Shown: positions 6,571 through 42,901 of the stretch, piece by piece
Position numbering within the stretch: the first letter of the stretch is position 1
Layout: each line of letters begins with the position of its first letter
Translations under genes and position numbers: made by a program
Source: a virus
Taxonomy: Duplodnaviria; Caudoviricetes
Length of the DNA: 64,000 nucleotides
Virus record (IMG/VR): IMGVR_UViG_3300005662_000039
Span: 4,188 to 68,187 of that record
Strand: one strand, 5' to 3'
The notes under the pieces: model-generated
Told to the model about the DNA's origin: nothing
Database searches by the model: none
Seen by the model: the letters and a program-made list of their open reading frames with translations, nothing else

Positions 6571-6598
6571 ATTTGCCTCTGATTTATAATATGGTATA

Positions 6599-7228: not shown

Positions 7229-7560
7229 GGCAATTTCGTTCCCTTCCTCCACGCCTTACAACTCCAGTATCTTGCAGTAGTCCTATCCTTTGCTGTATCG
7301 CATTTATGCCTTGCGAGAAAGGACTTCTGCCTGTTGGGCTTGTTTCTTTTGATACTCAGGGTCTTTTCTCCCTTTGATTTTGCACTAGATCCGCCGTGTC
7401 CGAAATTAACCTTCTTTACATTCCCTGACTTTGGATCTTTCACATAAACCTTGAACTTTTTAACATCGCCCTTCATTATCTTGCCAAGAGAGACTTCCTT
7501 GCCTTGATATTGAGCAGCATGCTTTTTAAGTTCAAATGATTCTGTTTCTATTATTACCAT
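7225..7560 (-). CDS. small basic conserved phage protein (YQG...KKFKVYV...VNFG...KSFLARH-C...ARYWSC-W family)
   Basis: Motif pattern I recognise from many large-phage hypothetical proteins; here preceded by KKHAAQ. Confidence 0.75.
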   Translation of the reverse strand: MVIIETESFELKKHAAQYQGKEVSLGKIMKGDVKKFKVYVKDPKSGNVKKVNFGHGGSSAKSKGEKTLSIKRNKPNRQKSFLARHKCDTAKDRTTARYWSCKAWRKGTKLP

Positions 7561-25138: not shown

Positions 25139-25849
25139 ATGTTCAATTTATCAAAAATAATAAGTCAAATTTTAGGCATAAATAAGAAAGCTTCTTTAGA
25201 ATCTTCTTTAGAAAAAGAGAGGACTAAGCAGGGGCTGCGATCTGGCGAAGAAGTTGGTGAAAAAGCTTTGGAAATAGATCGAGTTGGAGATGATTCTGAT
25301 CTTATTGAATCAAATTTAGATGCCAACAGAAAAACGGAATCAGATGCCAAGGTAACAGAGGCAGCAGTTGATGAGCATTCTGGCTTTACTGCTCGGCAGC
25401 CTGGAAAAACAGATGATTATGGAGATGTGTCTCCTATGGCTGTTGCTTCAGAAGCTTGGGACGCCCGTGCTCGTGAATTGTATAAGAAAGAATTATCTAA
25501 AATAACTAAAGCTGACTCTATTTTAGATAAGTATATCGGAGATAGGCACAATACAGAGACTAAGATAAAGTCTGTGTCTGAAAATTCAAGCGGATTGGCA
25601 AACATATCAGATAGATTTAAGGATTACGGATCTACGCCATTTGAAGATGCTAAGAAAAACATAGATTCAGTATCAAAAGAAACCAAGATAAATAAGATAT
25701 CATCTCAAATAATGGATCTTGATGCAATAAGACTTGCTGTGGAGGTAGAAGCCTTTAAGCGTGGTCATCATACAGAAGAAGACCATAGGGTGCTTGCATC
25801 TGTACGAACAAATAAGAAAACATTGCTACAAGAGCTTTTTAGTGTTTAA
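25139..25849 (+). CDS. head-region protein, MFNLSK...KKAS leader
   Basis: Leader motif plus SLESSL/LIESNL/VTEAAV repeats resembling the TE(G/S)QL repeats of the protease. Confidence 0.7.
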   Translation: MFNLSKIISQILGINKKASLESSLEKERTKQGLRSGEEVGEKALEIDRVGDDSDLIESNLDANRKTESDAKVTEAAVDEHSGFTARQPGKTDDYGDVSPMAVASEAWDARARELYKKELSKITKADSILDKYIGDRHNTETKIKSVSENSSGLANISDRFKDYGSTPFEDAKKNIDSVSKETKINKISSQIMDLDAIRLAVEVEAFKRGHHTEEDHRVLASVRTNKKTLLQELFSV

Positions 25850-26333
25850 TATTAATACAAAAGGATTTACTTTAAAAATAGCTCAAAGAGGTACTGATGT
25901 GCCTAGGGCTTTTGAAAATCCTATAGGAAAAAGAGATCCGTATCAGAATTACGAATTACCCAATGATGGCAAGGGCAGAAAATTAAATATTTTTGGAACA
26001 ATAGGGATGCCTGGAGAGCCTGGTAACGGTTCATCCTCTGCTATTGGTGGAGAAAAATTCAAAAGGGTTAATCCAGACATAGCACATCCATATTCAGAGA
26101 CGGGAGACACATTATCTAAGAGCCAGGATCCAGACCATCCTTTTGATTCTGAAGAAGATGGAAGACCATCAAGAAGTGAGTACGGGGTTGGTGGAGGATT
26201 GAATTTTTACAGCGATGATAGCGCTTTATCTATTAATAGCCGTGTTTTTGGATCTGATAGAGATAAAAATCCCAATGGTCCCCAAGGCGATGTTGGCGGA
26301 AAAGTTCGCTCTTTAGTGCCGAAATCGACTTAA
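25842..26333 (+). CDS. head-region protein, MFNI...LKIAQ leader
   Basis: A GTG start at 25842 overlapping the previous stop gives MFNINTKGFTLKIAQ|RGTD; G/P/D/S-rich disordered body. Confidence 0.65.
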   Translation: MFNINTKGFTLKIAQRGTDVPRAFENPIGKRDPYQNYELPNDGKGRKLNIFGTIGMPGEPGNGSSSAIGGEKFKRVNPDIAHPYSETGDTLSKSQDPDHPFDSEEDGRPSRSEYGVGGGLNFYSDDSALSINSRVFGSDRDKNPNGPQGDVGGKVRSLVPKST

Positions 26334-26343
26334 GGAGTTCATA

Positions 26344-27009
26344 ATGAAGATTAAAGTAACGAACAAGGTTAAAGGGGAAATAGTTATATCCTGCTTGGGT
26401 GGATCTATGCGCAGAGGAGACACCGTGGCTCTTGACCAAACAAAATCCTCTCATCCTGATGTTCTTTGGGCTATTCACCATGGATATCTTGAGATAGTTG
26501 ATAATATAATTGGGCAAGAACCCATGAGCGATGTTGTATGCTTTGTAAATTGCACAAAGAGAACACTTACTGGCAAGATGTTCTCTAAGCCTTTAGATCC
26601 ATCAAGAAGTATTGTCGTTAAGAAAACTGACCTTATATTTAATGAACTTATTAAAATGGTCGATAAGGGCAAATTGAAGATAGACGGTTCAAATAGTGTT
26701 ACTGTTTCTAGTATTCACCCTTCTGGGGTCACAGTAGCTGAACATATTGAAAATTTGGAATTAAAAGAAATTCAATCAAAAAATAAGAATAAGTCAAAAA
26801 AGACTGCCATTAAAAAAGTTGAAAACAACACTGATATATATGCAAATAAGAAGGATGAAAAAGCACAATATAATAAGAAGATTAGCGATAAAAATGATTC
26901 AGGCATTAGGGAAGAAGTAAACATGGACAATGCGATAAAGAAATCTAATGCTTTAGTTATGGGCATTAGAGATCCAATATTTGTTGATATGAACGGCGAG
27001 GTATCATGA
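26344..27009 (+). CDS. protein with two tandem copies of a ~50-aa module and a charged tail
   Basis: Each copy: beta(N)-beta-...-helix-G(Y/K)L(E/K)I; GGAG RBS. Confidence 0.75.
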   Translation: MKIKVTNKVKGEIVISCLGGSMRRGDTVALDQTKSSHPDVLWAIHHGYLEIVDNIIGQEPMSDVVCFVNCTKRTLTGKMFSKPLDPSRSIVVKKTDLIFNELIKMVDKGKLKIDGSNSVTVSSIHPSGVTVAEHIENLELKEIQSKNKNKSKKTAIKKVENNTDIYANKKDEKAQYNKKISDKNDSGIREEVNMDNAIKKSNALVMGIRDPIFVDMNGEVS

Positions 27010-27152
27010 AAATATTTGCATCAAAAAAAGCATTCAACAAAATAAAAAATGTTAAAAAGAAAAACCTGCTTACATTATGTAGGTATTTTTCTCTAATATA
27101 CCCCAAAGAATACGTTGAGGGGGTCGCGGGTGGGCGCTGTCCTTCAAGATAA
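27006..27152 (+). CDS. 48-aa protein missed by the ORF track; paralogous to the C-terminus of 29888..30541
   Basis: Gapless 31-aa alignment FNKIKNVKKKNLLTLCRYFSLIYPKEYVEGV vs FVKIANLTDKQKAAFRSYWQNVWPKEFIDAV; ATGA overlap with the upstream stop. Confidence 0.65.
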   Translation: MKIFASKKAFNKIKNVKKKNLLTLCRYFSLIYPKEYVEGVAGGRCPSR

Positions 27153-27906
27153 TAAAGTCGCAATAAGTAATTTTATAGCACTCGATCTTAAAAGATTGGG
27201 TGTTGATTTTATCGATGGAGTCATTTACTATCGAGGCAAAAATTACAATTCTGTTTCCGAATATGCTGATGAATTAAAAAAAGAAGTAACAAAAAATATT
27301 AGTCAACTCCGTAGCATATGGCAGTCTGTGCCTATTTTTCTGGCGGAAGATAGTGGCATCATCACTTCGGAAGGGTCTAGGTTGCTCTCTCACTGTCTTT
27401 ATAATTTATTAAAAAAAGTCAACTCCTATCATGTATTAAGCGGAATTCATGCTTCAATATCAATAAGATCAGCATTAAATTCAGATACTAAAAGATGGAG
27501 CGATAAGACAGCTGAAGATATATCTTATTTATCCGTAAAAATAGACAATATAGAAAGAGACATACGAAATAAAGCTTTTATAGTATCCTCCATTCACTTT
27601 TTGCACGAGAGTATGAAAAAAGTGGCTCAAAGTTCTGGAGGATCAGTTCAAGGTGCTTATTCCAACCTTGATTTACCAATGGCTGAGAGATGGTATCTAT
27701 GGAGAGATATTGATGATGAAGTAGATGGTAGAAGGGATTCTATTAGATCTCAACGTAGATATCAAATGGGTCTGGAAGACTCGGATCCGCTTGGTGTTAA
27801 GGAGGGTTTCTATTGGAGAGAAATAAGAAACGAACCATATAAGTTCGATGTTTTATATCCAGACTCGCCATATCCATACAGAAGTGCATTGTGGGGTAAT
27901 CCATGA
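27115..27906 (+). CDS. head-region protein with internal KKVAQ
   Basis: 263 aa, TTG start uncertain; KKVAQ|SSGGSVQGAYSNLDLPMAERW. Confidence 0.7.
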   Translation: MRGSRVGAVLQDNKVAISNFIALDLKRLGVDFIDGVIYYRGKNYNSVSEYADELKKEVTKNISQLRSIWQSVPIFLAEDSGIITSEGSRLLSHCLYNLLKKVNSYHVLSGIHASISIRSALNSDTKRWSDKTAEDISYLSVKIDNIERDIRNKAFIVSSIHFLHESMKKVAQSSGGSVQGAYSNLDLPMAERWYLWRDIDDEVDGRRDSIRSQRRYQMGLEDSDPLGVKEGFYWREIRNEPYKFDVLYPDSPYPYRSALWGNP

Positions 27907-28265
27907 ATGATATAAATAAAAAATCATATTCTGTTATTTCTCTAGTGTCCTCGATGGGGAGACCATCTTTTGTCCAAGGCAAAATACTACTGGAAATGTT
28001 TAAGATGGGGAGCGGTTCGTCTCTTGGACTTCCAGCCCATATAGGATCAGCTCAACTTAGTGAACTTCAGCGTAATGGTCTTATAGATATAGATTCAAAA
28101 AATAACATTTACCCAACTAAAATGGGTATGAAAATGCTGGAATCTTTAATATTGGGAGAAGATGATTGCACCTACCCACTAAAGGAGGCTGTTGCTGCTG
28201 ACAAGTTTAAAAAAGGAATTCCTCTTCATATGCTGGCAAAGTCTTCTTCCATCATGAGGCTATGA
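27903..28265 (+). CDS. hypothetical protein (possible winged helix)
   Basis: LSELQRNGLIDI...IYPTKMGMKML resembles a wHTH wing. Confidence 0.6.
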   Translation: MNDINKKSYSVISLVSSMGRPSFVQGKILLEMFKMGSGSSLGLPAHIGSAQLSELQRNGLIDIDSKNNIYPTKMGMKMLESLILGEDDCTYPLKEAVAADKFKKGIPLHMLAKSSSIMRL

Positions 28266-28266
28266 A

Positions 28267-28473
28267 ATGCAAGTAATTGCTTTTTATAAAGATGCCGCCG
28301 ATTATGATTCTTTTATAAAAAAAATTATAAATAAAGATATGCATAGCGACATTATTCATCACAAAAGCCAGAAGAAATTAATAATTGATATAACTATCGG
28401 TTCGGAGGATGATGCCGAGGGTTTTTTTATAGCTGAAAGATTTAGGGGCAGAAAGTTGGTTATAGATGCCTAG
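28267..28473 (+). CDS. hypothetical protein
   Basis: 68-aa ORF coupled to both neighbours. Confidence 0.55.
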   Translation: MQVIAFYKDAADYDSFIKKIINKDMHSDIIHHKSQKKLIIDITIGSEDDAEGFFIAERFRGRKLVIDA

Positions 28474-29227
28474 AGGAATGGCTATCATCAACTGTGAGTT
28501 AGCAGATAATCCCCATGCGCATTCTCGCGGACTGATGTTTCGTGATAGCCTTAAAGAAGGTCATGGCATGCTATTTGATTTTAAAAAGGAACAGAATCTT
28601 TCGTTTTGGGGCATGAACACACTTATACCTTTAGATATAGCATTTATCGATAAAAAAGGCAACATTGTTAATACCGATATTGTAAAACCTCATTGTCTTG
28701 ATTCTGTAAAAAGTTCCTCCCCTTGCATGTTTGCTCTCGAGGTTCCAGCGGGTACATTTAAAACTAATAATATAAAAAATGGTGATTTTGCAGAGATTTA
28801 TAAAGAAAACGGGAATACTGTAGTTTTTCTTCTAAAAAATCATTTAGAGGGAAATATTAAGGTCGCGGCTTTGGACATGGAGCCAGGTGGCAATCTTAAC
28901 GTGGATGCAGAAGAGATTCCAGCCAGAGGTAGTGTAGATAGAAATGTAAAGGATGAAAATGCTCCCTTGTTCGGCAGCGTATTTGATGCTCTTAAATGGT
29001 GTATACATAATCATGAAGTATGTAGAATAACATATCAGACTGATAGTGGTCATGTAATAACTAGAGATATAGAGCCTCATGATATTTTTTATGGTTCTAG
29101 CAAACATCATCAAATATTATCAACTTGGGACGAAAATGCTAATGGACCTAGAAGCTATATTGTCATGAGAATAATTTCTTATGCGATTCCTAGAAGGAAA
29201 TTTACTCCAAAAATACAACTTTATTAA
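28466..29227 (+). CDS. DUF192 domain + WYL-like domain fusion
   Basis: N-term ELADNP...RGLMFR...GMLFDF...FWGMNTLIPLDIAFID...ALEVPAG (DUF192); C-term CRITYQTDSG..ITRDIEPH.I...LSTWD....GPRSY..MRI (WYL pattern). Confidence 0.75.
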   Translation: MPRGMAIINCELADNPHAHSRGLMFRDSLKEGHGMLFDFKKEQNLSFWGMNTLIPLDIAFIDKKGNIVNTDIVKPHCLDSVKSSSPCMFALEVPAGTFKTNNIKNGDFAEIYKENGNTVVFLLKNHLEGNIKVAALDMEPGGNLNVDAEEIPARGSVDRNVKDENAPLFGSVFDALKWCIHNHEVCRITYQTDSGHVITRDIEPHDIFYGSSKHHQILSTWDENANGPRSYIVMRIISYAIPRRKFTPKIQLY

Positions 29228-29229
29228 AT

Positions 29230-29829
29230 ATGGAAAACATTATACGAGAATTACTTATCGCGGCACAGGGTCTTGACAACAGAGGCTTATCTAATGAAGC
29301 AAATGAATTGGACAAGACAGCAGAAACTTTAGTGAAGATAAAAACCGCCCAGTATGACGGCACTCAGGGGTATTTTATAAGAAATACTAGATGCTGGAAT
29401 GGGTGTATAAGGACAAAGAGAGCAGAAGGTAAAAACCCCAACGAGGCGTGGACTGAGTGTCATGAAGAGTGGGTTGATTCTTCGACATCAGGATCTGCTG
29501 ATGCGGTATGGGGAAAATATGCCAATGATGAATCGTTTAACAAGACTGCAGGCATTTATGACAATATCATACTTACTGCTGCTGATGCCGCATTGAAGAA
29601 CATAATTGAAGGCAGAATATCTCAAGGCATGTCTTATGAAGATGCGATTCCTATGAGTTTGGCTGAGCGCAGCATTGCTCTTGCCTCTGAACTTAGTAAA
29701 TGTGCTGAAAAAATAAATATTTTGGCAGAAGGTCTGGATATAGAAGGATCAGCATCTGTACTTAAAGATGTTTCAATTAAATTATCTGAATTGTCTGCAG
29801 AGGAATATGTAAAATCTATTTCATTTTAA
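29230..29829 (+). CDS. head-region protein with LD..G...EA..LD helix and IKTAQ motif
   Basis: AQGLDNRGLSNEANELDKTAETLVKIKTAQ|YDGTQGYFIRNTRCWNGC. Confidence 0.75.
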   Translation: MENIIRELLIAAQGLDNRGLSNEANELDKTAETLVKIKTAQYDGTQGYFIRNTRCWNGCIRTKRAEGKNPNEAWTECHEEWVDSSTSGSADAVWGKYANDESFNKTAGIYDNIILTAADAALKNIIEGRISQGMSYEDAIPMSLAERSIALASELSKCAEKINILAEGLDIEGSASVLKDVSIKLSELSAEEYVKSISF

Positions 29830-29887
29830 CAAGGTTAAATAGTAGAAATTTAGTAAAAATTAAGCTAGTAATAGCAAGGAGCAAAGT

Positions 29888-30541
29888 ATGAGATTCTTTT
29901 CAAACAAGATATATGTGAATGGTGCGTCAAAAAATTTTAATGACATAATAAATGATGTAGCCGGTGGCATGAAGAAGCAGGCAAGCGTCGCTTCGCAGTC
30001 TGCTGAAAAGCCTGTTGTTAAGCAGGCCAAAGAGGCTATAACAGATGCTCAGGAAGGAAAACTTCCTCCAGCTCTGGTTGCAGCCATTAAGAGAAAGGAA
30101 GGCAAGCCAGGAAAGAGCAAGAAGAAGTCATCAATAAATGGCAACGATGTTAAAATAGCCTCCGTAAACCAAATAGACACCGATACTGTTGAAGTGGAAT
30201 TCGTTCCAGAGAACACTAAGGTCGCTGAGATTGAAATATCAGATGATGGTTCAGTTAAGATGGCTGGATGGAATGAGGGAATGGCTGCTACTGAGGATTC
30301 AAATGAGGCTGGCTCTTCAGAGGATAATGCTGAGTCTAAAGAAGTAGCTGATTCTGATTCTGCAGAAAACTCAGATGGCAAGGAGTCATGCGAGGCTTGT
30401 GGCATGTCCACCATGGCTTCTTCTGGAGACTTTGTTAAGATTGCCAATCTAACCGATAAGCAGAAAGCTGCTTTCCGTAGCTATTGGCAGAATGTCTGGC
30501 CAAAAGAGTTCATTGACGCGGTTTTAACCAAGGATCAATAA
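29888..30541 (+). CDS. head-region protein with multiple K-x-A motifs and CxxC
   Basis: KKQAS, VKQAK, VKIAS, KVAE, VKMAG, VKIAN; CEACG; AGGAG RBS. Confidence 0.75.
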   Translation: MRFFSNKIYVNGASKNFNDIINDVAGGMKKQASVASQSAEKPVVKQAKEAITDAQEGKLPPALVAAIKRKEGKPGKSKKKSSINGNDVKIASVNQIDTDTVEVEFVPENTKVAEIEISDDGSVKMAGWNEGMAATEDSNEAGSSEDNAESKEVADSDSAENSDGKESCEACGMSTMASSGDFVKIANLTDKQKAAFRSYWQNVWPKEFIDAVLTKDQ

Positions 30542-31179
30542 TGTCCATAATCCCTGTAGGTCGGCGTTCTGAAATGGTCGGCCAAATATTCAGGTTGGCT
30601 AATGACCAACTTCATCAGCCTGATGCTGATTCTGCCTATATGACCTCGGGTGATTCTCAGTCTCCTTTGCCTTCGGATGCGGTTAAGAACGCAGCCCCTG
30701 TCGTAAAAGATGCGACAGGGGCTGCTGCGGATGCGGCTGGTTTTCACGATCTTGTATATAAAGAACTTGAAAATTTAGGCATTGATCCTCGTATCATTTC
30801 TAGAAAAAGCAATTCTCTTATTAAATTCGAAGAAGACATAGCAAGTGGTAAAATGTCTGGAAGTTTTTTAATACCAGTCGAACTCCCCACTGGCGGTACT
30901 GTTTCTCATGATAAAGCAAAAGAGATCGCTTTAAAAATATTCGATAAGTTTGGACTAAAAGGAAAAATCGGAAGAGACGAGAGACGGAAGTTTCATGTCA
31001 TATCATTTTCCACCAAAGAAGCAGAAGCGTCTAAGCCTACGAATGAAGGGTCTTTTGGAAATCTTCCAGACAATGAAGCAGAAAAAAAGACAAGTACTGC
31101 ATCCGTGCAATCCGAAATGTTCTTAACTAGAAAGTCAATGCTTATTGATGCTTTGAGAAAAGGCGGATACATCAGATGA
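30541..31179 (+). CDS. hypothetical head-region protein
   Basis: 212-aa ORF, translationally coupled. Confidence 0.75.
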   Translation: MSIIPVGRRSEMVGQIFRLANDQLHQPDADSAYMTSGDSQSPLPSDAVKNAAPVVKDATGAAADAAGFHDLVYKELENLGIDPRIISRKSNSLIKFEEDIASGKMSGSFLIPVELPTGGTVSHDKAKEIALKIFDKFGLKGKIGRDERRKFHVISFSTKEAEASKPTNEGSFGNLPDNEAEKKTSTASVQSEMFLTRKSMLIDALRKGGYIR

Positions 31180-31847
31180 TATTTAGCAATAGAGACTCTG
31201 GTAAAAGCAATATTTTTGGTGATGCATTTGATAAATACGATGCATCTTCAGCCGTTCCTAGCGACGATGTACTCGAGTCTATGCGAAGGAAAGCATGGAG
31301 CAGCTCTCCCTCAGGAGGGGAGGCATTGAGGAATACGATTTCCAGATCATCCGCTGCTACAGATGATTCCAGTGCTTCTGGGCGCGCATTCATTGGCATG
31401 AACTCAGCAAGAAGTATATTTTCTGATTCGACAAATAATGAAGGGAAAATCGATGCTAAGTCAGCATCTGATTCTTCAAGACAGTCAGAGAAAAATGCTA
31501 GAAAAGACCTAGAGCGCAAGCGAAGGGCAGAGTCGAATCCATCTGGAGAATTGGAAGCAAAGAATTTTTCTGCACACGCAAGCGAACATAAGCGCATGGA
31601 CGTTACGAAAAACGCAATTAGCATATTTGATAAAAATCCATTTGAAAGAATGGGATCCAATGAGGCAGAGTTGAAGAAGAATATAAAAGTAGCCAACGAA
31701 GACCTGCACGGATCTAGGCAACTGACATCAAAAGATGTTACTGAAAGAATATTTAATGGATTCGGTGCCGAAGTTAAAAAAGCAACACATCATCAGTCCG
31801 TGGTTGATAATTTGATAAATAAGTTGAAAGGTGATAAAAGTGAGTAA
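31176..31847 (+). CDS. hypothetical Ser-rich head-region protein
   Basis: 223-aa ORF, ATGA-coupled. Confidence 0.75.
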   Translation: MIFSNRDSGKSNIFGDAFDKYDASSAVPSDDVLESMRRKAWSSSPSGGEALRNTISRSSAATDDSSASGRAFIGMNSARSIFSDSTNNEGKIDAKSASDSSRQSEKNARKDLERKRRAESNPSGELEAKNFSAHASEHKRMDVTKNAISIFDKNPFERMGSNEAELKKNIKVANEDLHGSRQLTSKDVTERIFNGFGAEVKKATHHQSVVDNLINKLKGDKSE

Positions 31848-32838
31848 TACTTTTAATCTCAAGAAGTTCGCTCAGCAGTCAATTGCTCAAATGCCGAGAC
31901 AGGATGTAGTGGAGTCGCCAGCATCCGCATCTGCAAGCGATTCTCCATTATTAATGGATCAGGGATATGATAGCACAGTTTCTCAGGATTCTAATATAAC
32001 TTTACCTAAATTCCAAAATGGAAGTGAACTTTTCGAGTTTTTGGAGGCTTTTAGAACTCAGCAAGGAGATGCTGCTTCTGCTTATGATGCCGCATGGAAT
32101 GGTTTTTTTGCAAAGAGATTGGCTGGCAGTCCTAATGCTTCTTCTTTTGAAGATGGATTGAGAAGATTTTACGAGCAAAAGGACAATAGTAATGAGGCGA
32201 CAAAAGTCGCAATGGATATTTTTGATATATATTCTTCTATGATAGATCCCAATATTCAGCCCATCATGACAGAGACTAAGTCTGCTTCAGTGCTTATAGA
32301 TGAATTAATAGATTCTACAGATGCAATCATATTAAGCATGGCTAGGTCGATAGTAAAAAATGCTTCTAAATCTAGTTTTAATTTATCAAAATTTGCCCAG
32401 CATAAAACTCTAACTAATTCAGTTGTAATGACTGGTCCAAGCCAGGTGGGAATATCTCCATTTACTAGAGATTTACAGTCAAGCATGCATCTTGTAGAGC
32501 AGAACAAGGGATTTGGTCTGCGGATAGGTGATATATTGGATATAGATTTCGAGTCCATATGGCGTGGTAATATAATGGACAAGTACTATAGATCCACTAG
32601 GGATAAAGATGGCATATATGGTGGTGGCTATATAGACGACAAATTCGAGGTTAATCGATTTATTCCAGTTGGAAATAACTATCAGTTACCTCCAGGTGTA
32701 AGACACAGACCATACATCCCCGAGCACGGATTGACCGAAGCTCGTATAGAAGTTGCCAGAGGCAACAAAGATAAATTGAGTGACCCAAGAAAATTTGCCA
32801 AGATATATAATCACTCTCTATCTAAAAAAAAAGTATAA
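31840..32838 (+). CDS. head-region protein with two FNLxKFAQ motifs
   Basis: (M)SNTFNLKKFAQ|Q and SFNLSKFAQ|H; ends at an A9 run (SKKKV*). Start is GTG 31840 or 31831. Confidence 0.8.
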   Translation: MSNTFNLKKFAQQSIAQMPRQDVVESPASASASDSPLLMDQGYDSTVSQDSNITLPKFQNGSELFEFLEAFRTQQGDAASAYDAAWNGFFAKRLAGSPNASSFEDGLRRFYEQKDNSNEATKVAMDIFDIYSSMIDPNIQPIMTETKSASVLIDELIDSTDAIILSMARSIVKNASKSSFNLSKFAQHKTLTNSVVMTGPSQVGISPFTRDLQSSMHLVEQNKGFGLRIGDILDIDFESIWRGNIMDKYYRSTRDKDGIYGGGYIDDKFEVNRFIPVGNNYQLPPGVRHRPYIPEHGLTEARIEVARGNKDKLSDPRKFAKIYNHSLSKKKV

Positions 32839-33047
32839 CGACAAATAAATTTGCTAATCAAGCGTTATCTCCAGGAGATGCGCTTGATCGTGCATTTTCC
32901 GCACTAGATGGAGCAAAAGACAAGGGGCTTGGAAAGTATCGAATATGCCCTGTCTGCGGAAGTCACTGCAGTGCGGAAGCATCTGTATTCAAGTGTCATA
33001 ATTGCAATGCATCATTAGCAAATGTAATAATTCACTTTAAATCGTAA
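32826..33047 (+). CDS. start-less -1-frame extension encoding a zinc ribbon (frameshift product of the upstream gene)
   Basis: The -1 frame is open from just after TAA 32823-25 to TAA 33045-47: KKSITTNKFANQ...CPVCGSHC...FKCHNCNAS; no ATG/GTG/TTG anywhere in this frame. Confidence 0.6.
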   Translation, partial: KKSITTNKFANQALSPGDALDRAFSALDGAKDKGLGKYRICPVCGSHCSAEASVFKCHNCNASLANVIIHFKS

Positions 33048-33066
33048 TACCGAAATCTAGGTTAGT

Positions 33067-35289
33067 ATGACCAAAAAAAATTCCAATAAAGAAGTCGAAT
33101 CAGGTAGTTCAGATAATTCATTAAGTATGAATAAGCTGGCATCAGGTGGTGCTGTGCATATGCCTATCACCAAGGCTGCTCAGTATGTTGGTGGATCAGC
33201 ATCTACCATATTTACTCAGCCAATGTTCTTTAGTCCCCTGCACACTCCTCAAAATTGGCAGATAGCAAGTAAGCGTCGAGAAGTCGCTCAGTGGGCGAGG
33301 TTTTATTACGAGAACGAGCCAAAAGCTGCTGCTGGAATAGATTTTTATGCTAATTTTCCCATGAACGGATTCAAGCTAGAATGCAAGGATCGTAAGGTTC
33401 TGGCATTTTATGAGCATTTGATAGATAAGTTGGATTTGGAAAACTGGCTTAGAAAAATAAGTCACGAATATTATCTTCTCGGAGACGTATTTGTCTTTAC
33501 CGAGGTGGAATGTCCTGTGTGTGGTGGTACTGGAGAAAGAGTCGATGGGATGATGTGCAATCATCCTGATGGAGTAATTAAGAGGATACTTATATTAAAT
33601 CCTGACTTTGTTGAAGTCCAAAGAACTCAGTTAGCAGATGAGCCTGCAGTTGTGCTTCTTCCAGATGATGATCTGAAGAGAGTGGTGTCGCAAAAGAAGC
33701 CTCTTGAAGTTTATAATAGAATACCAGAAAATGTTAAGCGAATGGTGATGGCTGGAGCTCCAATTCCTCTCTCTCCCAGATGTGTAAGTCATATAAAGCG
33801 CAAAGGTTCTCCATACGGTACTTATGGAGAATCATTGTTGAGAAGATTATTCACCATAATATCTTATAAAACAAAATTAATGACAGCGAATTGGATAGCA
33901 GCTGAAAGGCATATACTTCCAGTCAGGGTAGTAAAAGTTGGTACTGAAAATCGTCCAGCCAGTGAGGCAGATATTGCTGATGCACAATCCCAATTGGCAT
34001 CAGTTGCAAATGATCCGAATCTCACTATTGTTACTCATCATGCATTTGAGATGGACTTTGTTGGAGCAACGGGCAAGATTCATGATATGAGTACTCAAAT
34101 GGAGGCAATAGGCAAGGAGATGCTTGATGGTCTCATGTTGCCTCAGACATTGCTTAACGGCGAAATGGCAGGATATAGTTCAGCGGCTGTGGGCGTGGAA
34201 ACTTTGATAAGAAGGTTGGAGACATGGAGGATAGAGCTAGCATCTTGGGTTGAGAAGAATATATTTTTACCAGTTGCTCAAATGCAGGGCTTTGTTGACG
34301 TATCAAAGTCTAAACTTGTTGGTGAAACGGTTTATTTGTATCCAAGATTAAAATGGAACGACCTTAATCTTCGTGATAATACATCTAAATTGCAAAATCT
34401 AATGCAACTTCATGATAAGGGTCTTATTTCAACGCAAAAATTGCTTGAGGAATTTAATATCGATTATGATACTGAAATCAATAGGCTAAGAGAGGAACAG
34501 ATTACCGCTGGTAAGGGTGGTAATATAATGGGTGGCTCTGGTTCTGGAGGAGGTTCTTCTGCTGGCACTGAGATGCCAATGCCAACTGGTGGCAGTGGCC
34601 CTCCATTGGATATGGGAAGTCCCTTGCCTCCACCAGATATGGGAGCTCCAAGTGGTGGCGCTATGCCATCAATGGACTCTAGCGTATCTGCTCCGTCATT
34701 GACAGGAGAAGCTGCGCCTATGCCTGCTGCAGAAGGGGGAGCGCTTCAATCATCAGCAGCAGTAATGCCTGATAAAATATATAAAAAAGGCAAGGCTCCA
34801 AAGATTGAAAAAAAAGAGGAGCATAAGCCAGAGCCTCCTAAACAAATTTATTTAACTAAGCCAGAACAAAAACTATATTCTATTCTATCTAGAATGAGAG
34901 TTCCATATAGGCTTTTTGCTCAGTTTAAACAAGCAACTCCATATTCTACAAGTCCATACTTGCTTGACTTTGCCTATCCAGAAATCGGTGTTGACTTGGA
35001 GGCTGATGGTGACTTCTGGCATTCTGACCCAGAATCTATATATAGGGACAAAAATCGTGATGCTAATTTAGCCACAATGGGATGGCGTGTAATACGAATT
35101 AAAGAGTCAGCTCTTAATGGTGCGGTCGATGAGGTTGAGAAGATTATATCTGCTAACATTCGTGAAGCAGCATTGGAGAAAAAGCAACTTAGCAAAAAGG
35201 CTTCTATTCATAATTTCAGTATGATAGATAGTGAATTTTGCACTATCTACCTTCCTTCTGGAGAAATAGATGATAAAGATCGCAGCTAA
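33067..35289 (+). CDS. portal protein with C-terminal DUF559/Vsr-like nuclease domain
   Basis: Position between TerL and protease; FYYENEPKAAAGIDFYANFP, EYYLLGDVF, PYGTYGESLL, LTIVTHH, LKWNDLNL portal-type motifs; P/G/M/S linker; then KPEQKLY...LDFAYPEIGVDLEADGDFWH...DKNRDANLATMGWRVIRI. Confidence 0.85.
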   Translation: MTKKNSNKEVESGSSDNSLSMNKLASGGAVHMPITKAAQYVGGSASTIFTQPMFFSPLHTPQNWQIASKRREVAQWARFYYENEPKAAAGIDFYANFPMNGFKLECKDRKVLAFYEHLIDKLDLENWLRKISHEYYLLGDVFVFTEVECPVCGGTGERVDGMMCNHPDGVIKRILILNPDFVEVQRTQLADEPAVVLLPDDDLKRVVSQKKPLEVYNRIPENVKRMVMAGAPIPLSPRCVSHIKRKGSPYGTYGESLLRRLFTIISYKTKLMTANWIAAERHILPVRVVKVGTENRPASEADIADAQSQLASVANDPNLTIVTHHAFEMDFVGATGKIHDMSTQMEAIGKEMLDGLMLPQTLLNGEMAGYSSAAVGVETLIRRLETWRIELASWVEKNIFLPVAQMQGFVDVSKSKLVGETVYLYPRLKWNDLNLRDNTSKLQNLMQLHDKGLISTQKLLEEFNIDYDTEINRLREEQITAGKGGNIMGGSGSGGGSSAGTEMPMPTGGSGPPLDMGSPLPPPDMGAPSGGAMPSMDSSVSAPSLTGEAAPMPAAEGGALQSSAAVMPDKIYKKGKAPKIEKKEEHKPEPPKQIYLTKPEQKLYSILSRMRVPYRLFAQFKQATPYSTSPYLLDFAYPEIGVDLEADGDFWHSDPESIYRDKNRDANLATMGWRVIRIKESALNGAVDEVEKIISANIREAALEKKQLSKKASIHNFSMIDSEFCTIYLPSGEIDDKDRS

Positions 35290-35683
35290 GAGAATAAAAG
35301 ACCGCAACATTTCCTGGAAAGAAGAATATACGGAAAGAACTAAACCTCTAAAGGAGAGATATGAGGATCAGATCGGTATTGGTTCTTACTACAGATGGGC
35401 TGGTCATGATTATACTACGAATAGCGATTACTACGTTGTTTGCTCTCCCGCAAAAACAAAAGAACTAGACAATGCATTTTTTGCTGGCATAAAAAAACTA
35501 CCTCCAATATATAAAAGAGATGTAACAAAGGTTTATTCTCCATATGGAAGGTATTTTAACAATATAGCTAGTGCATTAACCTTCCTGAATGATAAGTACA
35601 ACATACCATACCCAAAAGAACAGATTAATTATACCGATGAAAATCTCCAAGGAATTAAAATACCTCGTTTTATAAAGGCTTAA
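35270..35683 (+). CDS. conserved hypothetical protein between portal and protease
   Basis: 137 aa, MIKIAAK start; overlaps the portal stop. Confidence 0.7.
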   Translation: MIKIAAKRIKDRNISWKEEYTERTKPLKERYEDQIGIGSYYRWAGHDYTTNSDYYVVCSPAKTKELDNAFFAGIKKLPPIYKRDVTKVYSPYGRYFNNIASALTFLNDKYNIPYPKEQINYTDENLQGIKIPRFIKA

Positions 35684-35684: not shown

Positions 35685-38600
35685 ATGGAAGATACTATTG
35701 AAGAAAATGGTTTGGGTAAGAAGAGTTTCCGTTTTACATCTGATAGAGATGTATGTGCTCTTAATCTGCCCAATAATTGGCAAGAGATAAACACAGATAT
35801 TCTAACTAAAAATGCTTCTATTAAAGAAAACGGATCAATCTTCAATAAAAACGGTAAAGTAGTAGATTTGGGAGGCTTTGATCTTGATAAAGCCATTGAC
35901 GAAAATTCAGAGTGCCTATTCGTTAAGGTTTTTGCTATTAAGAAAGATGAAGTTAACGACAATGGTGATTTCTTCAACGAAAGTGAACTTAAGAAAGCTA
36001 CTAGCACATTCATTGGCGTTCCAGTTTTCGTTAATCATCAAAATGATGATATAGAAAAAGCCAGAGGCAAGGTTGTTCACGCATGGTATGATGATGAAAG
36101 AGGTGGCATATACACCATAAACATGGTCGATAAGGTTGCTTTCCCTCGTCTTGCTCGTGGGCTTGAGGCAGGCTATGTTACTGGCAGTTCGATGGGATGT
36201 TCTGTGAAGTATTCCTGCTGCAGTATATGTCATACCAGAGCTGCCACAGCTAAAGAATTTTGTAGCCACATTAAGGAAAGAAAAAAGAGACTCTTTAATG
36301 GGGAATGCGAATGCAAGTATCATGATCGTCCTAATGCTGGAGATGAGCCATGCCCATTATGTGACAAGAAAAAGGGCGAGAAAAAAGCCAATGTCTATAA
36401 AGACAAGCAAATATTTGAGCACAACTATGGGGTTAAATTTATAGAAGACAGTTTTGTAGTCAATCCTGCTTGTCATGATTGTCTCGTGTCCGACATACTT
36501 AATCCAAGTGAATTGCAGAAGAAAGTTGCTAATGTCACAGATATTATTAAGAAATACGCATCATCCATTGAGGGGCAAGAGCATAATGATGGATGCAGTG
36601 ATGGTTCTTGCTCTTTAAGAAAAGTTGCTGGGGTCAAGGAGATTGGAGATTTAAATGAGGCTATGAATAAAATGGAGAGAGTTGTTCGCTCTATGATGGC
36701 TCAAAAATCAAAAGTATCTTTGGAGTATGTTTCAGATATTATAAAAGTTTGCGCAGATGTTCAGAAAATAGCAGATGAATTAGTGGAAATGGGATATGCA
36801 AGACTTCCATCGCCTAGTGACGACCAGGTTGCTTTTGGAGTGGCGGAGCATGCCTCTCCCATTAATCCTCAAGGGTCTCCTGTGCAGACATCCACCCCTG
36901 CTATGCCATCTCCATCTGCTGCCATCCCTGCGAGTACTAAGCCTATCCAAACTGCAGTAGCTAAGCCTGGATCATTCTCGGCACAGACTACTGAGTACGG
37001 TGATGATATAGGTAGAGTGACAAAACCTTCTTTTATGCCAAGAAAATCAGAAAATATGGAGGATTTTGTTAAAATAAGTCATATGATACGCGATAGGATT
37101 GCTAATTTAGAAGAAAAATTAGCGGAGGGTATTGATTTGGGACTAAGTTCTGATTACAGGGCGACAGATGGCGATATCTCCATTGTTATCACTGCTGATG
37201 ATGATGGGGATATGTTTGTATCTGCGTTTAATGGCACAAGAATGACTAAATGGGCAAGCGTCGATACGCTTACTCAAGAATTACGGCAGTTGGTAATAAA
37301 CGACCCCACGGAGGCCGCCAGAAGGTTGTTAATTGCAGGTTACGGCGGCACCAACCGGAGCGAAGATACTATGAATAGCAATGAAAATAATGATAATCTG
37401 AAGATCGCTAAGAGAAAAGATGCACCAGATGTAACTACTCAGGCTCAGCTTGATGGATCTGGTCTTTTATATGGAGCACGCAAGGGCGATGCTCCAGACA
37501 AGACCACTCAATCCCAACTTGATGGGCACATAAAGAAGGACGAATCTAGTGCTTCTCCAGTAGAACGTCATCCATCTCCCACTGATACTGTGGAGTCTCA
37601 GTTGAATGGCAAGGGCGGATTCATGGTTCGTTGGAGCAACACTCCAGAAGCCATCACTGAAGGACAGTGGACTGCTGCTAACAGGGAAGTATATGCCAAG
37701 TTGCCTTCGGATTGGTCTGAAGGCGCAAAAGAATCTCAACTTGAAGCCCTTCGAAAGTCTCACAAGTGGGTTGATCCATCGGAAACCACAGAGGGGCAAC
37801 TTGCCAAGAATGCCTCATCTTCTGCAGTTGATTTGATCAAAGCTGCATCAGATGGCATATCAACGGCTATAGGCTTCTATGGTCTAACTGCTGATCAGGT
37901 TAAGAAAGCATTCGCTGTTGCTGGTAAGAACATGGAGAAGACTGCTTTCAGCGTTCTTTACAACGCTGCTCCATGGCTGGTTGAGGACAGGATTAAGAAT
38001 GTTTCTTTGAAGCGTTTCCTTTCCAAGGAAGCAAGTTCTGCTGATCTCGGTATAGAGCCAATGGACGCTCTCGTTGCTGGCTTGGCTGATCATGTTGGCA
38101 ATCTTCCTGTTGATCAGGTAATAAAAGCAGCATCTTGGATATCTAAAGAGCAAGTTGCCTTCCAGACTGCTATCGACAACGCTGAAAAATTCGCCTCAGT
38201 AGAGGAGGATGCCAGCGTAGATGAGGATGATATTTTCCGTAAGGCCTTTCGCGAGTCTAACTTTCCAGAAGATGGACTTTTCAAGATATGCGCGACGATA
38301 GAAGATGACATTAACGTAGATCCTTCCGCTGGTGATGCATTTGTGCGTGCTGTTCATAAGTTTGCATCTGCTCAGGTTTCTGAGGCTTTCGGAGTCTCAG
38401 AACTTGCTCCTATGTCAATAGATATAGACGATTCCAACGGTATCGTGGAAGCAACTTTGAAGATTGCATCCATGCTTGATGCGGAGGAATTAAAGCATTA
38501 CAACGAATGGCTTTCTTCCGCTGAAAAGTCAGAAAAGAATGCCTCCTCCTCTTTGGAAGACAGGAGAAGCAAGCGCGCTTCTGTCCTTAATAAAATTGAC

Positions 38601-41192
38601 GAGTTAGAGAAGAAAGCGCAGATGATGGGCGGACAAATGCCAGCTAACCTTAATCCTGCTGGAATGGGAGCTGGTATGAATCTTCCTGGCGGTAGTGTTC
38701 CTCCAGGAACTCCTGGAGTGGAGGCTCTTACAACTGGTCCTGGTATTCCTGGTCCAGGTGGAGCTCCTTCGCCAGCAGCAGATCCGTTGGCTGGTTTGGG
38801 TGGTGACGATGCTTCGGAATCTGCCGAAGATGCTCCAGAAACAGCGAATCCTCCCATGGCAGTCTGTGTTGTTTGCGGAAATAATGATGTTGATGTTTCA
38901 GGTGGAAAATCAAAGTGCAAGGGTCCTGGATGTGGTAGTGGATTTAGCCTGAAGGTCGTCCCCGCATCTTTACTTGATGGTGCTTCTGAGGCGGAACCAA
39001 GTTCTGAAGATTCTGAAGCATCTGTAGAGAAAGGTCTGGGAGGATCTGGAGCAGCGCTGCCACCATCTGGTGCAATGCCCCCAGTTGCTGCCAGTGCCAA
39101 GTTGGATGTTGACGCACTCAAGAAGGTGGCTTCCACTATTGAATTCGGATCAGTAAGTCCTATTACTGGCACAAGGAACACCGTCAAGTTGGGAGATGGT
39201 ACTTGGGCATGTCTTGACAGTGGGCAGAAGTACATAGTTCGTGTTGCAGCAAGTGCAAATGATCCTAAGTCAATATGGGCTCAATGGGAATGGGTTCCAC
39301 AGGTCAAGAAGGCATCATGCTCCAGTTGTTCTCGTAAGAAGCAGGCTTTTGTGAATGCGCTTTCAGAAATGGGAATTTCCGAATCTCAGTTTGATTCAAT
39401 GCCAGTTAACAAAAAGGCAGAAACCATTATTGCTGTTCATCAGTCTGGAAAATATTCCGAGATTAAGCAAGCATCATTGGATTCAGATGTGAAATATTCC
39501 ATCAAGCAGGCCTTTACCGTTCATGGAGAATTCCCCATGAATGATTGCATGGAGAAACTTGCTCGACGTTATGGAGAGAATGCTCTCGCGCTCAGTGGCC
39601 CATGTGAAGGTAGAAATCTTGCTGATTGCGTTTGCAATGGTCTTGCTAAGGAGAAGGTGTATACCACAGGATTGGCCAGCAAGATTGCTTCCGTATGGTC
39701 TGACAAGGATGCGATGGATAATTGCCTTGAGGATCTCATTCGTTCTGGAATGACTCTTGGCAAGGCTGCTTACGCATGCGATGGAATGAAGACTAAGTAC
39801 GCTTCAGTAGAGGAGCTTTTTGCTGAAGCCATGTCTGGAGACGAATTCGGTGGTGATGACACTGATGGATCTGATGAAGGTAATGACGATGATAATTCAG
39901 ATCCATTCGATTCTGACGGCGATGATGTTGATGTAAAACATGTTGATCCAAATGACATGGAGATAGATCTCAAGCTTCACGCTGATCCAGAGATGCTTGA
40001 TGCGATAGAAAAAGCTATATCTGAGATTATGTCCAATGTTCCATCTTCAGATGGAGCAGAAGACAATGATGTTGAATTTGAGATAGCTGATGACGATGCA
40101 GACATTGAAGAAGGTGATGTTGATGTTGATACATCAGGTGATGATTCGTCCGATTCCGACGAAAAAGCTGAAAAATTAGAAATTAACAAAGGAAAAGACG
40201 GACAAGACATGAATATTGTAAATGATACCATGGAAAAAGAATCCGACATGACAAAATTAGCACCAAAGGCAGCAGAGTCCAATGACGAGCGCATTCAGCG
40301 TGAAGCAATGGCATTGCGCCGTGGTAGAGTAGTTGGCGTCGGAAAACTTGAACTTGATGTGTCTAAGATAGCCAATTCCCTCAATAAGAGTTCAAGTGAA
40401 AAAGAAGTAAAGCAGGAAAATCCACAGGACAACGCAGGAAAGATATCTGGCGAGAATGTCCCCATGGAAGATGCCGATGCTCCTACTTCTGGCGAGGGAA
40501 TGAAGGATATGGATAAGCCTTCTATCCCAGTTACTGGAGACTCTGAGATGGGCAATGCTGTGACTGGTCGCGTGGCATCTTTTGAGTCCGCACTTGCAAA
40601 GATGGCAAAAGACATGAAGTTGCAGCGAGGCAATGTCCAAGACGATAAGGACATTGGAAATTACAGCAAGGACGGCATTGAGATGACATCTCCCAATGTT
40701 CCATCAAAGGGCGGTGCCGATCTTGATACCCCAAGCATACCTGCTGGAGATGGTGCCTTTGATGGCGAGTCTGAAGCAGGATACACAGCAGAAAAGCAAA
40801 ATCACATGACTGGCGGAGACGCTGGATCTGGTGGAGATACGAAGACCAGTGGTGTTCGTGAGGAACTTGCGCTCAAGATTGCAGCAAGAATGGTTGAGGA
40901 GAAGGTTATTTCAGCCATGCAAATGCCTGCAAAGATAAACGAGCTATCGAGATACCAGGTATCTCAGCTTCAGGATCTTGAGAAAGTTATGTTTAGGAAC
41001 GCCTCTAAAGGTCTAAAGACAGCTTCTGTATCAGGTGGTTTGGAGAAACCTCTTCTGATAGCAGATTCCAGCAGCGAGAAGAATGTATCTTCTGATCTTA
41101 AGTCAAAGATATCTTCTCTCTTCCGTCTACACAAGCAGAACGAAATGGCTGATCAGACGGAAAATGCCAAGTTACGTGACGTTTTCAGATAA
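35685..41192 (+). CDS. prohead (capsid maturation) protease fused to a very large scaffold/core region (1835 aa)
   Basis: N-terminal domain DFF...ELKKA..TFIGVPVFVNH...GKV...GSSMGC.V....CSIC (His and Ser candidates of HK97/herpes-fold proteases); acidic disordered and helical C-terminal parts; directly upstream of the decoration protein and MCP. Confidence 0.8.
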   Translation: MEDTIEENGLGKKSFRFTSDRDVCALNLPNNWQEINTDILTKNASIKENGSIFNKNGKVVDLGGFDLDKAIDENSECLFVKVFAIKKDEVNDNGDFFNESELKKATSTFIGVPVFVNHQNDDIEKARGKVVHAWYDDERGGIYTINMVDKVAFPRLARGLEAGYVTGSSMGCSVKYSCCSICHTRAATAKEFCSHIKERKKRLFNGECECKYHDRPNAGDEPCPLCDKKKGEKKANVYKDKQIFEHNYGVKFIEDSFVVNPACHDCLVSDILNPSELQKKVANVTDIIKKYASSIEGQEHNDGCSDGSCSLRKVAGVKEIGDLNEAMNKMERVVRSMMAQKSKVSLEYVSDIIKVCADVQKIADELVEMGYARLPSPSDDQVAFGVAEHASPINPQGSPVQTSTPAMPSPSAAIPASTKPIQTAVAKPGSFSAQTTEYGDDIGRVTKPSFMPRKSENMEDFVKISHMIRDRIANLEEKLAEGIDLGLSSDYRATDGDISIVITADDDGDMFVSAFNGTRMTKWASVDTLTQELRQLVINDPTEAARRLLIAGYGGTNRSEDTMNSNENNDNLKIAKRKDAPDVTTQAQLDGSGLLYGARKGDAPDKTTQSQLDGHIKKDESSASPVERHPSPTDTVESQLNGKGGFMVRWSNTPEAITEGQWTAANREVYAKLPSDWSEGAKESQLEALRKSHKWVDPSETTEGQLAKNASSSAVDLIKAASDGISTAIGFYGLTADQVKKAFAVAGKNMEKTAFSVLYNAAPWLVEDRIKNVSLKRFLSKEASSADLGIEPMDALVAGLADHVGNLPVDQVIKAASWISKEQVAFQTAIDNAEKFASVEEDASVDEDDIFRKAFRESNFPEDGLFKICATIEDDINVDPSAGDAFVRAVHKFASAQVSEAFGVSELAPMSIDIDDSNGIVEATLKIASMLDAEELKHYNEWLSSAEKSEKNASSSLEDRRSKRASVLNKIDELEKKAQMMGGQMPANLNPAGMGAGMNLPGGSVPPGTPGVEALTTGPGIPGPGGAPSPAADPLAGLGGDDASESAEDAPETANPPMAVCVVCGNNDVDVSGGKSKCKGPGCGSGFSLKVVPASLLDGASEAEPSSEDSEASVEKGLGGSGAALPPSGAMPPVAASAKLDVDALKKVASTIEFGSVSPITGTRNTVKLGDGTWACLDSGQKYIVRVAASANDPKSIWAQWEWVPQVKKASCSSCSRKKQAFVNALSEMGISESQFDSMPVNKKAETIIAVHQSGKYSEIKQASLDSDVKYSIKQAFTVHGEFPMNDCMEKLARRYGENALALSGPCEGRNLADCVCNGLAKEKVYTTGLASKIASVWSDKDAMDNCLEDLIRSGMTLGKAAYACDGMKTKYASVEELFAEAMSGDEFGGDDTDGSDEGNDDDNSDPFDSDGDDVDVKHVDPNDMEIDLKLHADPEMLDAIEKAISEIMSNVPSSDGAEDNDVEFEIADDDADIEEGDVDVDTSGDDSSDSDEKAEKLEINKGKDGQDMNIVNDTMEKESDMTKLAPKAAESNDERIQREAMALRRGRVVGVGKLELDVSKIANSLNKSSSEKEVKQENPQDNAGKISGENVPMEDADAPTSGEGMKDMDKPSIPVTGDSEMGNAVTGRVASFESALAKMAKDMKLQRGNVQDDKDIGNYSKDGIEMTSPNVPSKGGADLDTPSIPAGDGAFDGESEAGYTAEKQNHMTGGDAGSGGDTKTSGVREELALKIAARMVEEKVISAMQMPAKINELSRYQVSQLQDLEKVMFRNASKGLKTASVSGGLEKPLLIADSSSEKNVSSDLKSKISSLFRLHKQNEMADQTENAKLRDVFR
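37427..37803 (+). repeat. six (T/V/I)(T)E/Q-x-QL peptide repeats in the protease/scaffold
   Basis: DVTTQAQL, DKTTQSQL, DTVESQL, AITEGQW, AKESQL, ETTEGQL. Confidence 0.7.
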
Positions 41193-41871: not shown

Positions 41872-42759
41872 ATGTCAATAGATAAAAATGGTCTTACCTA
41901 TGATGAGAAGGAAATGGTCATTGCCCAGGCGCTCGCCACCGAAGAGGGTCGCACCGCGCTTGCTCAGGCAATGGTTGAGCCAATTCGCCGGTCACTTGAG
42001 TATCAGGCGGTTGGTCGTAAGCTTCTGATGGTTGATGAGCTTCCCCAGGGCGCTCTTCCCCGTTACGAGCGTGACGTTGCCTCCGTGGCCACCGTTGTTG
42101 CTCGTCAGGGCGCAGTGCCTGATCAGATCGTTGAGGGCGAGGAGATCCTTGTCCCAACCTTCGAAATCGCTGCTCACCCAACCATCCGTCTTTCTGAGAT
42201 CAAGGCTCGTCGATTCTATATCGTCGACCGTGCTCAGATCAAGGCTAAGGAAGCAATCCAGAAGGAAGAGGATCGCAACATATTCAATGCTCTCATCGCT
42301 GCAGCTGATGCGCGTGATGCTAGTGGTCTCGGCAGCCAGATTGTAGATAACCAGGGAACCCTGGAGACTGCTTCTCTGAACACTGCTTACCGCTTCATCG
42401 AGCAGCACGACCTTGTTGCCTCTAAGGTTGTTTGCCACCCCAATCAGTACGCTTCATTCCGTACTTTTGGTAAGTCTTTCTACGATGAGGCTACCACTCG
42501 TGAGATTCTGACCACTGGTCTTTACGGTCACCTCTGGACTGCTGACATTCACGTCAGTTCCCAGCTTGACACTCAGACCATATTGGTTACTGCTTCTCCA
42601 GACACTGTTGGAGCTTTCCCAATCCGTCAGGATATCACTGTTCTTCCAGCAGACGATCCAAAGAAGCTTCGTCTTGGCTGGGTCATTTTCGAGGAAGTCG
42701 GCGTTGTTGTAATGAACGACTACGCTGTAGCCAAGATCGAAGTCAGCGTTGCATCCTAA
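41872..42759 (+). CDS. major capsid protein (HK97 fold)
   Basis: LAQAMVEPIRRSLEYQAVGRKLLMVDELPQG...EILVPTFEIAAHP...AIQKEED...DIHVSS...GWVIFEEVG; strong codon bias; AAGGA RBS; followed by a terminator. Confidence 0.9.
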   Translation: MSIDKNGLTYDEKEMVIAQALATEEGRTALAQAMVEPIRRSLEYQAVGRKLLMVDELPQGALPRYERDVASVATVVARQGAVPDQIVEGEEILVPTFEIAAHPTIRLSEIKARRFYIVDRAQIKAKEAIQKEEDRNIFNALIAAADARDASGLGSQIVDNQGTLETASLNTAYRFIEQHDLVASKVVCHPNQYASFRTFGKSFYDEATTREILTTGLYGHLWTADIHVSSQLDTQTILVTASPDTVGAFPIRQDITVLPADDPKKLRLGWVIFEEVGVVVMNDYAVAKIEVSVAS

Positions 42760-42796: not shown

Positions 42797-42828
42797 GGCT
42801 TCATGCCGAAAGGCATGGAGCCTTTTTT
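42797..42828 (+). terminator. intrinsic terminator after MCP
   Basis: GGCTTCATGCC-GAAA-GGCATGGAGCC-TTTTTT. Confidence 0.9.
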
Positions 42829-42901
42829 ATTTTATTGTTATATCATAAAAACTACTTTTCAAAAAGGTGTTATTCCAACTTGCTCGTATATAATATCTCA
42901 T

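Follow-up and report, generated by a model that had tools for sequence, protein, structure and literature searches.

A protease-led giant protein in the head module

The 64,000-nucleotide window analyzed here (positions 4,188 to 68,187 of IMG/VR record IMGVR_UViG_3300005662_000039) comes from a huge phage related to Bacillus phage G. Within its head module, between the portal and capsid genes, an open reading frame (ORF) at 35685-41192 (+) is translated into a protease-led giant head protein of 1,835 amino acids (aa), P0001, in which the short motif K-x-A-[S/Q] is strongly overrepresented. The portal protein (33067..35289, +; 740 aa) was recognized through Portal_Mu and phrog_16240. The 295-aa major capsid protein (41872..42759, +; phrog_2522) is 49% identical to phage G gp27 over residues 8-291; aligned to the 282 aa of gp27, it has no delta domain. 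A Pfam search with the whole 1,835-aa protein gave no family match. The best explanation of its layout is an N-terminal prohead serine protease fused to a long body of scaffold or internal protein.

The protease domain spans residues 75-274 (35907..36506, +). An AlphaFold2 (AF2) model built on 60 homologues had a predicted local distance difference test score (pLDDT) above 90 across residues 60-280, and Foldseek returned herpesvirus proteases and T4 gp21 as its best matches (probability about 1.0). Re-alignment with VIA gave Z scores of 11.0 for the varicella-zoster virus (VZV) protease, 10.5 for pseudorabies virus (PRV) pUL26N, and 10.1 for T4 gp21, and the top 37 rows were all herpes proteases or T4 gp21 (Z 7.5-11.0, root mean square deviation 2.4-3.5 Å, 97-128 residues). 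Residues 75-274 are thus modeled with the assemblin or prohead serine protease fold. Sequence comparisons agreed with the model, as residues 78-272 matched the head maturation protease family phrog_18299 (3.6e-11) and the domain has 37% identity to phage G gp19, an annotated head maturation protease. Scores for the HK97-type Pfam models Peptidase_S78 and S78_2 fell below the gathering threshold (13.9 bits versus 21 and 13.6 versus 24), and the protease therefore represents a branch of the superfamily that these models do not cover.

The VNH and GSSMG motifs that an earlier note on this DNA had singled out are present and correspond to His118 (36036-36038, +) and Ser169 (36189-36191, +). Both residues are invariant in 60 diverse sequences, and their spacing of ~50 residues suggests that they are the putative catalytic pair of the superfamily. 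The third catalytic residue is a His in herpes proteases and acidic in phage enzymes; E101 and D149, invariant in the same 60 sequences, are candidates for that role. A Cys cluster, probably a zinc site, is inserted in the protease domain (36219-36482), with C179, C182, and C193 invariant and C263 and C266 nearly so. It also occurs in phage G gp19 and is unusual among prohead proteases. In many homologues, inteins with LAGLIDADG or Hint domains sit directly after GSSMG (G171|C172), a placement typical of active-site motifs. Intein-bearing homologues include P0003, P0006, P0012, P0028, and P0057, with an insertion point equivalent to window positions 36195-36200, and some relatives carry two or three inteins.

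This protease clade is large: clustered at 50% identity, it numbers 2518 clusters at E<=0.001 and 1301 clusters at E<=1e-10. Lengths of 1400-2700 aa are common, on contigs that reach about 498 kilobases, and >200 full-length homologues have 1800-2700 aa. Cultured members include Bxz1-type mycobacteriophages (e.g., Catera gp94) and Gordonia and Rhodococcus phages.

Enrichment, conservation, and turnover of the motif

The 1,835-aa protein contains 19 copies of K-x-A-[S/Q], 18 of them K-x-A-S. The earlier note had listed 18 K-x-A-[S/Q] sites, all of them correct, and had overlooked KWAS at residues 522-525 (37248..37259, +), which is poorly conserved. Its estimate that about 2 would be expected by chance held up well. 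In 5000 whole-protein shuffles, K-x-A-[S/Q] averaged 1.86 occurrences (maximum 8) and K-x-A-S 1.45 (maximum 7). Shuffling within blocks of 30, 50, or 100 residues still gave a mean of about 1.9 (maximum 9), and uneven local composition is therefore not the cause of the count. When K, A, and S were ordered or spaced otherwise, each of the eleven resulting patterns occurred 0-4 times, and an unbiased scan of all three-residue gapped patterns ranked K-x-A-S first (Poisson 3e-14). The pair K-x-A alone was found 41 times versus 14.9 expected. Around these sites, the pattern extends to h-x-K-x-A-S, with Leu, Val, or Ile at -2, a frequent Asp at -4, and a frequent Val or Ser after the Ser. Beyond the hydrophobic residue at -2 and the Asp at -4, the flanks of the 19 sites are little alike. 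Near-variants reported previously are also present, as KVAN at 280, KVAG at 313, KIAK at 573, and RVAS at 1629, and RNAS at residue 1771 adds another.

The same bias runs through the family. Among 121 full-length homologues, K-x-A-S occurred on average 9.4 times per protein versus 1.24 expected. Among two-residue patterns, K-x-A came first in 108 of 120 close members and in 18 of 19 further representatives, and in the distant clade it still came first more often than any other (9 of 43 members). Individual sites are conserved as well, as the earlier note had asked to see. At sites 42, 719, 781, 976, 1147, 1261, and 1333, the K and A are kept in 78-100% of 88 homologues, while the flanks are 18-40% identical. 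Four of these, 42, 976, 1261, and 1333, are near invariant. At site 42, the K is kept in 99%, the A in 100%, and the S in 76 of the 88 sequences, with flanks only 19% identical; at 976 (KKAQ), the Q is invariant (88/88); site 1261, at a loop position, has K in 100% and A in 99%; and site 1333, within a confident helix, has K in 99% and A in 100%. Outside the protease core, conservation of the motif K, A, and S/Q was 0.58, 0.57, and 0.39, compared to 0.35, 0.33, and 0.25 for the same residues elsewhere (p 0.002-0.005). The variable position between K and A (P2 if the motif is cut after Ala) was not raised, having the same conservation as the flanks, about 0.28.

Most sites nevertheless turn over. 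Across 89 proteins we distinguished 94 site clusters, 7 of them shared by 45 or more sequences and 51 limited to 4 or fewer, and each protein retains 4-23 sites. Few shared and many transient sites fit short linear motifs selected for their presence rather than a fixed structural element. One arrangement recurs, in that sites bracket the catalytic core, at 42 and 290/313 in the giant protein and at about 31-39 and about 276-283 in shorter or stand-alone homologues. Core-flanking sites are also found in phage G gp19 (9, 248, and 274) and in Catera gp94.

Where the sites fall can be followed along the protein with the AF2 model, a second structure model that covers residues 640-1835 and holds 16 of the sites, and the conservation profile of the family. 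KNAS at residues 42-45 (35808..35819, +) precedes the protease core and is part of a low-confidence stretch (pLDDT below 50). KYAS at residues 290-293 (36552..36563, +), just past the core, is a candidate release site, and it is followed by KVAG at 313, whose Lys is nearly invariant. In the body, T-[TE]-x-Q-L repeats lie at residues 584-707 (37434..37805, +; TTQAQL, TTQSQL, TVESQL, KESQL, and TTEGQL). These repeats are kept as ITExQL in the family consensus, are enriched in distant homologues, and could be shell-binding repeats.

A helical domain follows at about residues 715-980, and in and around it lies a cluster of ten sites (residues 708-979; 37806..38621, +) where 0.44 would be expected locally. 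In order they are KNAS, KAAS, KEAS, KAAS, KFAS, KFAS, KIAS, KNAS, KRAS, and KKAQ. Beyond a linker of Pro, Gly, and Met comes a zinc-ribbon-like CxxC...CxxxxC module (residues 1059-1086; 38859..38942, +) and then a β-rich domain plus a conserved Cys-rich domain (about 1135-1385), in and around which fall five sites, KVAS, KKAS, KQAS, KIAS, and KYAS (residues 1147-1374; 39123..39806, +). Residues 1388-1720 form a disordered tract of ~330 residues. Its first part is acidic, with residues 1385-1520 (39837..40244, +) being predicted to be disordered and containing 52 D/E and zero sites. Conserved helices at 1720-1835 end the protein. The last site, KTAS at residues 1778-1781 (41016..41027, +), lies 55 residues from the C terminus, in a disordered linker that leads to conserved helices at the end. 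By analogy, it may correspond to the M-site of assemblin.

Pfam recognized no known family in the body, and a profile search of solved structures gave zinc-ribbon proteins only (E 0.0045 or worse). Likewise, a search for the body among separate phage G genes found no counterpart, as hhalign of the family profile against gp20 and gp21 gave a probability of about 0.1. Natural gene splits at motif positions were also sought; eight of nine related loci without the giant ORF were broken by contig ends. A nested internal start that would give a scaffold-only product, of the UL26.5 or Nu3 type, was sought as well, and candidates such as the ATG at codon 327 prove nothing because ribosome-binding sites are weak throughout the phage.

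The motif in neighboring genes

The motif is not confined to the giant protein. Window ORFs at 25139-35683, the portal included, contain 14 sites versus 2.66 expected (p 8.5e-7), and the remaining window ORFs contain 16 versus 9.0. The head-module ORFs at 25139..32838 (+) have no assigned function (a PHROGs search of ten of them gave no match), and several have N-terminal leaders that end in K-x-A-[S/Q], at residue 16 in the ORF starting at 25139, 39 in that at 25761, 38 in that at 29230, 30 in that at 29888, and 12 in that at 31831. The portal protein has sites near both of its ends, KLAS at 23, KAAQ at 36, and KKAS at 710 of 740, as does the phage G portal gp14, with KMAS at 55 and KIAS at 625 of 648. 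In the window, KKAS at 710 follows a C-terminal DUF559 or REase_MTES_1575-like endonuclease domain of the portal (residues about 597-696).

A comparison set of 63 related IMG/VR loci, with upstream ORFs taken from the same strand and the reversed motif as a control, showed the same distribution. Giant ORFs contained 698 sites (reversed motif 105, expected 101) and upstream head ORFs 529 (reversed motif 63, expected 109), compared to 63 in downstream ORFs (reversed motif 27, expected 34). Sites fell within the first 50 residues in 112 of 444 upstream ORFs, versus 14 for the reversed motif, and often ended leaders of the forms MKFxTNKI...VKTAS, FNLxKxAQ, and ...VKTAQY. The enrichment over shuffled and non-head proteins that the earlier note had made its test was thus obtained.

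Surface proteins are free of the motif. The capsid protein has zero K-x-A-[S/Q], as had been claimed, and the adjacent 194-aa protein also has none. The latter is a candidate decoration protein by position only; BLASTP found no similarity to the phage G decoration protein gp26. Directly 3' of the capsid gene are a homing or HNH-endonuclease-like gene with a GNAT domain (42803-44548) and, after it, a gene for a GT4 glycosyltransferase (44564-45916). Outside the head module, ORFs at 4275-7252 (- strand), 3197-4189, and 51216-53585 have N-terminal K/R-x-A-Q leaders, and the leader motifs seen there are KHAQ at 27, KTAQ at 23, RIAQ at 16, and FNLSKYIKYAQ at 12. Judged by these leaders, the proteins may be further packaged proteins.

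A proposed cleavage code, its alternatives, and known systems

Because enrichment, conservation, the assemblin fold, and the placement of the motif at the ends of neighboring leaders agree, we think it likely that the protease encoded by this gene recognizes K-x-A-[S/Q] and cuts at it, to process both itself and its cargo, probably at K-x-A↓S/Q. In this model, once the procapsid has assembled, the enzyme would cut, most likely after Ala, with Lys at P3, Ala at P1, Ser or Gln at P1', and a hydrophobic residue two positions before the Lys. The protease would release itself at the core-flanking sites 42 and 290, the body would be chopped into about 20 pieces, the conserved C-terminal tail would be released at 1778, and the portal and small head proteins with upstream genes would lose their short N-terminal leaders. 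Cutting at all sites would leave, among other pieces, a protease of 248 residues (45-292) and a fragment of 407 (1374-1780) that is largely disordered and has an acidic N-terminal part. The central proposal of the earlier note, that the protease cuts after K-x-A and chops up its own scaffold, is thus supported in part: the motif is probably the cleavage code of this protease, and for the scissile bond the proposal draws on analogy.

Several observations weigh against this cleavage model. Seven of the 16 modeled sites (719, 814, 892, 951, 963, 1147, and 1333), including the invariant site 1333, lie inside confident helices. The model does not, for that reason, require cutting at every site. A preference of sites for low-confidence or disordered regions was sought, and none was found; the long disordered tracts are site free, yet the local expectation there is only 0.2. 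In the distant clade, the observed/expected ratio is only 1.7, and many of the 63 loci are close relatives, so that their pooled counts are not independent. The bond after Ala was chosen by analogy only. The register K(P3)-x-A(P1)↓S/Q(P1') is the likeliest because of the analogy with T4 gp21, SPN3US gp245, and assemblin, but the HK97 protease, from the nearest (although subthreshold) Pfam family, cuts after Lys, and an alternative register by analogy with HK97 would place the cut there. Finally, proteomic or biochemical evidence of cutting for this clade was not found in the open-access literature, where the phage G proteomics paper gives presence or absence of proteins only.

A motif shared by so many head proteins could also be an address rather than a cutting site, one that recruits its bearers into the procapsid by binding to the scaffold, the protease, or the inside of the shell. 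Multivalent repeats would suit a scaffold, many of the sites are helical, and the motif terminates conserved N-terminal leaders (MKFxTNKI...VKTAS and FNLxKxAQ) of otherwise unrelated head proteins. Those leaders, however, show conservation of their own N-terminal to the motif, an indication that targeting is distinct from the terminal K-x-A, in the manner of T4 internal proteins. In addition, stand-alone proteases, which lack a scaffold body, also have their core bracketed by sites, and conservation of the putative capsid-binding C-terminal region does not depend on the motif. We therefore regard docking without cleavage as unlikely.

The crowding of ten sites into one helical region (708-979) and the seven sites in confident helices raise another possibility, that the motif packs or caps the helices of a repeated module and owes its number to internal duplication. 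Against this, the site flanks share little beyond the hydrophobic -2 and Asp -4 residues, positional turnover is high, and sites also occur in loops and disordered linkers (42, 708, 781, 1208, 1261, and 1778), in unrelated small proteins, and in the portal, making a purely structural role quite improbable. Least credible to us is that something other than the phage protease reads the motif, either a host protease or a modifying enzyme acting on the Ser, such as the glycosyltransferases of the structural operon. Glycosyltransferase genes do adjoin the capsid gene, but Gln substitutes for Ser at invariant sites, K and A are better conserved than Ser, and the motif is missing from the proteins at the surface (capsid protein and 194-aa protein) and, moreover, tracks the protease family across hosts, from the Bacillus-type phage G to mycobacteriophage Catera and marine and soil metagenomes.

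Beyond this one protein, we lean toward a broader proposal: that a large clade (>1300 50%-identity clusters at E<=1e-10), with phage G, Bxz1-type mycobacteriophages, and most phage-G-like megaphages among its members, relies on a Lys-x-Ala↓Ser/Gln code near that of assemblin, that the giant fusions are self-processing polyproteins releasing internal head proteins, and that the motif is a tag of the packaged head-interior proteome. Head-maturation proteolysis itself is known, and in our best reading what is new is a different, assemblin-like substrate code. Established cleavage motifs of large phages are only of the Glu type (T4, phiKZ, and SPN3US), and a 2026 review of jumbo phages gives the phiKZ motif as the sole one. 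Searches of the open-access literature turned up neither a K-x-A code nor cleavage sites or motifs for phage G, its gp19, Bxz1-type phages, or Catera gp94. If true, the proposal would supply a substrate rule for a protease clade present in thousands of megaphage lineages, and sequence alone would suffice to predict head-interior and ejected proteins. It would also bring phage prohead proteases closer to herpesvirus assemblin, not only in fold but in specificity, and hint at how a very-high-T capsid (T=52 in phage G) forms around a self-removing scaffold of 1,835 residues.

Among known systems, phage G gp19 and Catera gp94 belong to the same clade as the enzyme (37% and about 35% identity) and share the gene order portal, protease, small protein, and capsid protein. 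Phage G gp19 is a 300-aa stand-alone enzyme. Catera gp94 has 1369 aa, a different body, and weaker enrichment (K-x-A 18 versus 8.2 expected). A stretch in the middle of Catera gp94 (L002 5875-9984) reads ...GYAIDLM...HFDHMHI..., which we take to resemble a zinc D-Ala-D-Ala/L-Ala-D-Glu peptidase motif and which would presumably fit a polyprotein that releases an ejected cell-wall enzyme.

Proteases of T4, phiKZ, and SPN3US offer a further parallel. T4 gp21 has the same fold, and the proposed code follows the P3-x-P1 logic of the T4-type enzymes (PMC10052503), whose motifs are (L/I)-x-E for T4 gp21, (S/A/G)-x-E for phiKZ gp175, and A-x-E for SPN3US gp245, the last cutting after Glu with Ser preferred at P1' (PMC10052503; PMC13282480). 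In those phages, scaffold and internal head proteins are likewise rich in the motif, which also ends the N-terminal propeptides removed from cargo proteins and the portal. The differences are that Lys and Ala are the conserved residues here, so that P1 would be Ala rather than Glu and P3 would be Lys, that their protease is a separate small protein whereas here it heads an 1,835-aa fusion, and that cutting was measured for them and is inferred from sequence here.

Herpesvirus assemblin (UL26; MEROPS S21), which gave the best structural matches, is another close known system. An N-terminal protease, a noncatalytic body, and a capsid protein without a delta domain are found together here, as in a protease-scaffold fusion; lambda C/Nu3 and P2 gpO are other such fusions. 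Assemblin cuts at (V/L/I)-x-A↓S, an Ala↓Ser bond with a determinant at P3, and K-x-A↓S would be in register with it. The claim that the code is new holds, then, with respect to the Glu-type phage motifs and is tempered by this match to assemblin. The two systems are far from identical. P3 would be Lys here instead of Val, Leu, or Ile; there are about 19 sites compared to 2-3 in the assemblin precursor, and the giant protein is three times longer; the protease domain has a Cys-cluster insertion and no sequence-level similarity to assemblin; and the virus is a bacterial one with an HK97-type capsid protein of 295 aa. The layout nonetheless parallels that of UL26, in which protease and scaffold share one ORF, a release site follows the protease, and a maturation site lies near the C-terminal capsid-binding tail (PMC4498786). 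The giant protein has, in the same order, a leader, the protease, a candidate release site, the presumed scaffold, and, 55 residues before the end, a last candidate site followed by a conserved tail.

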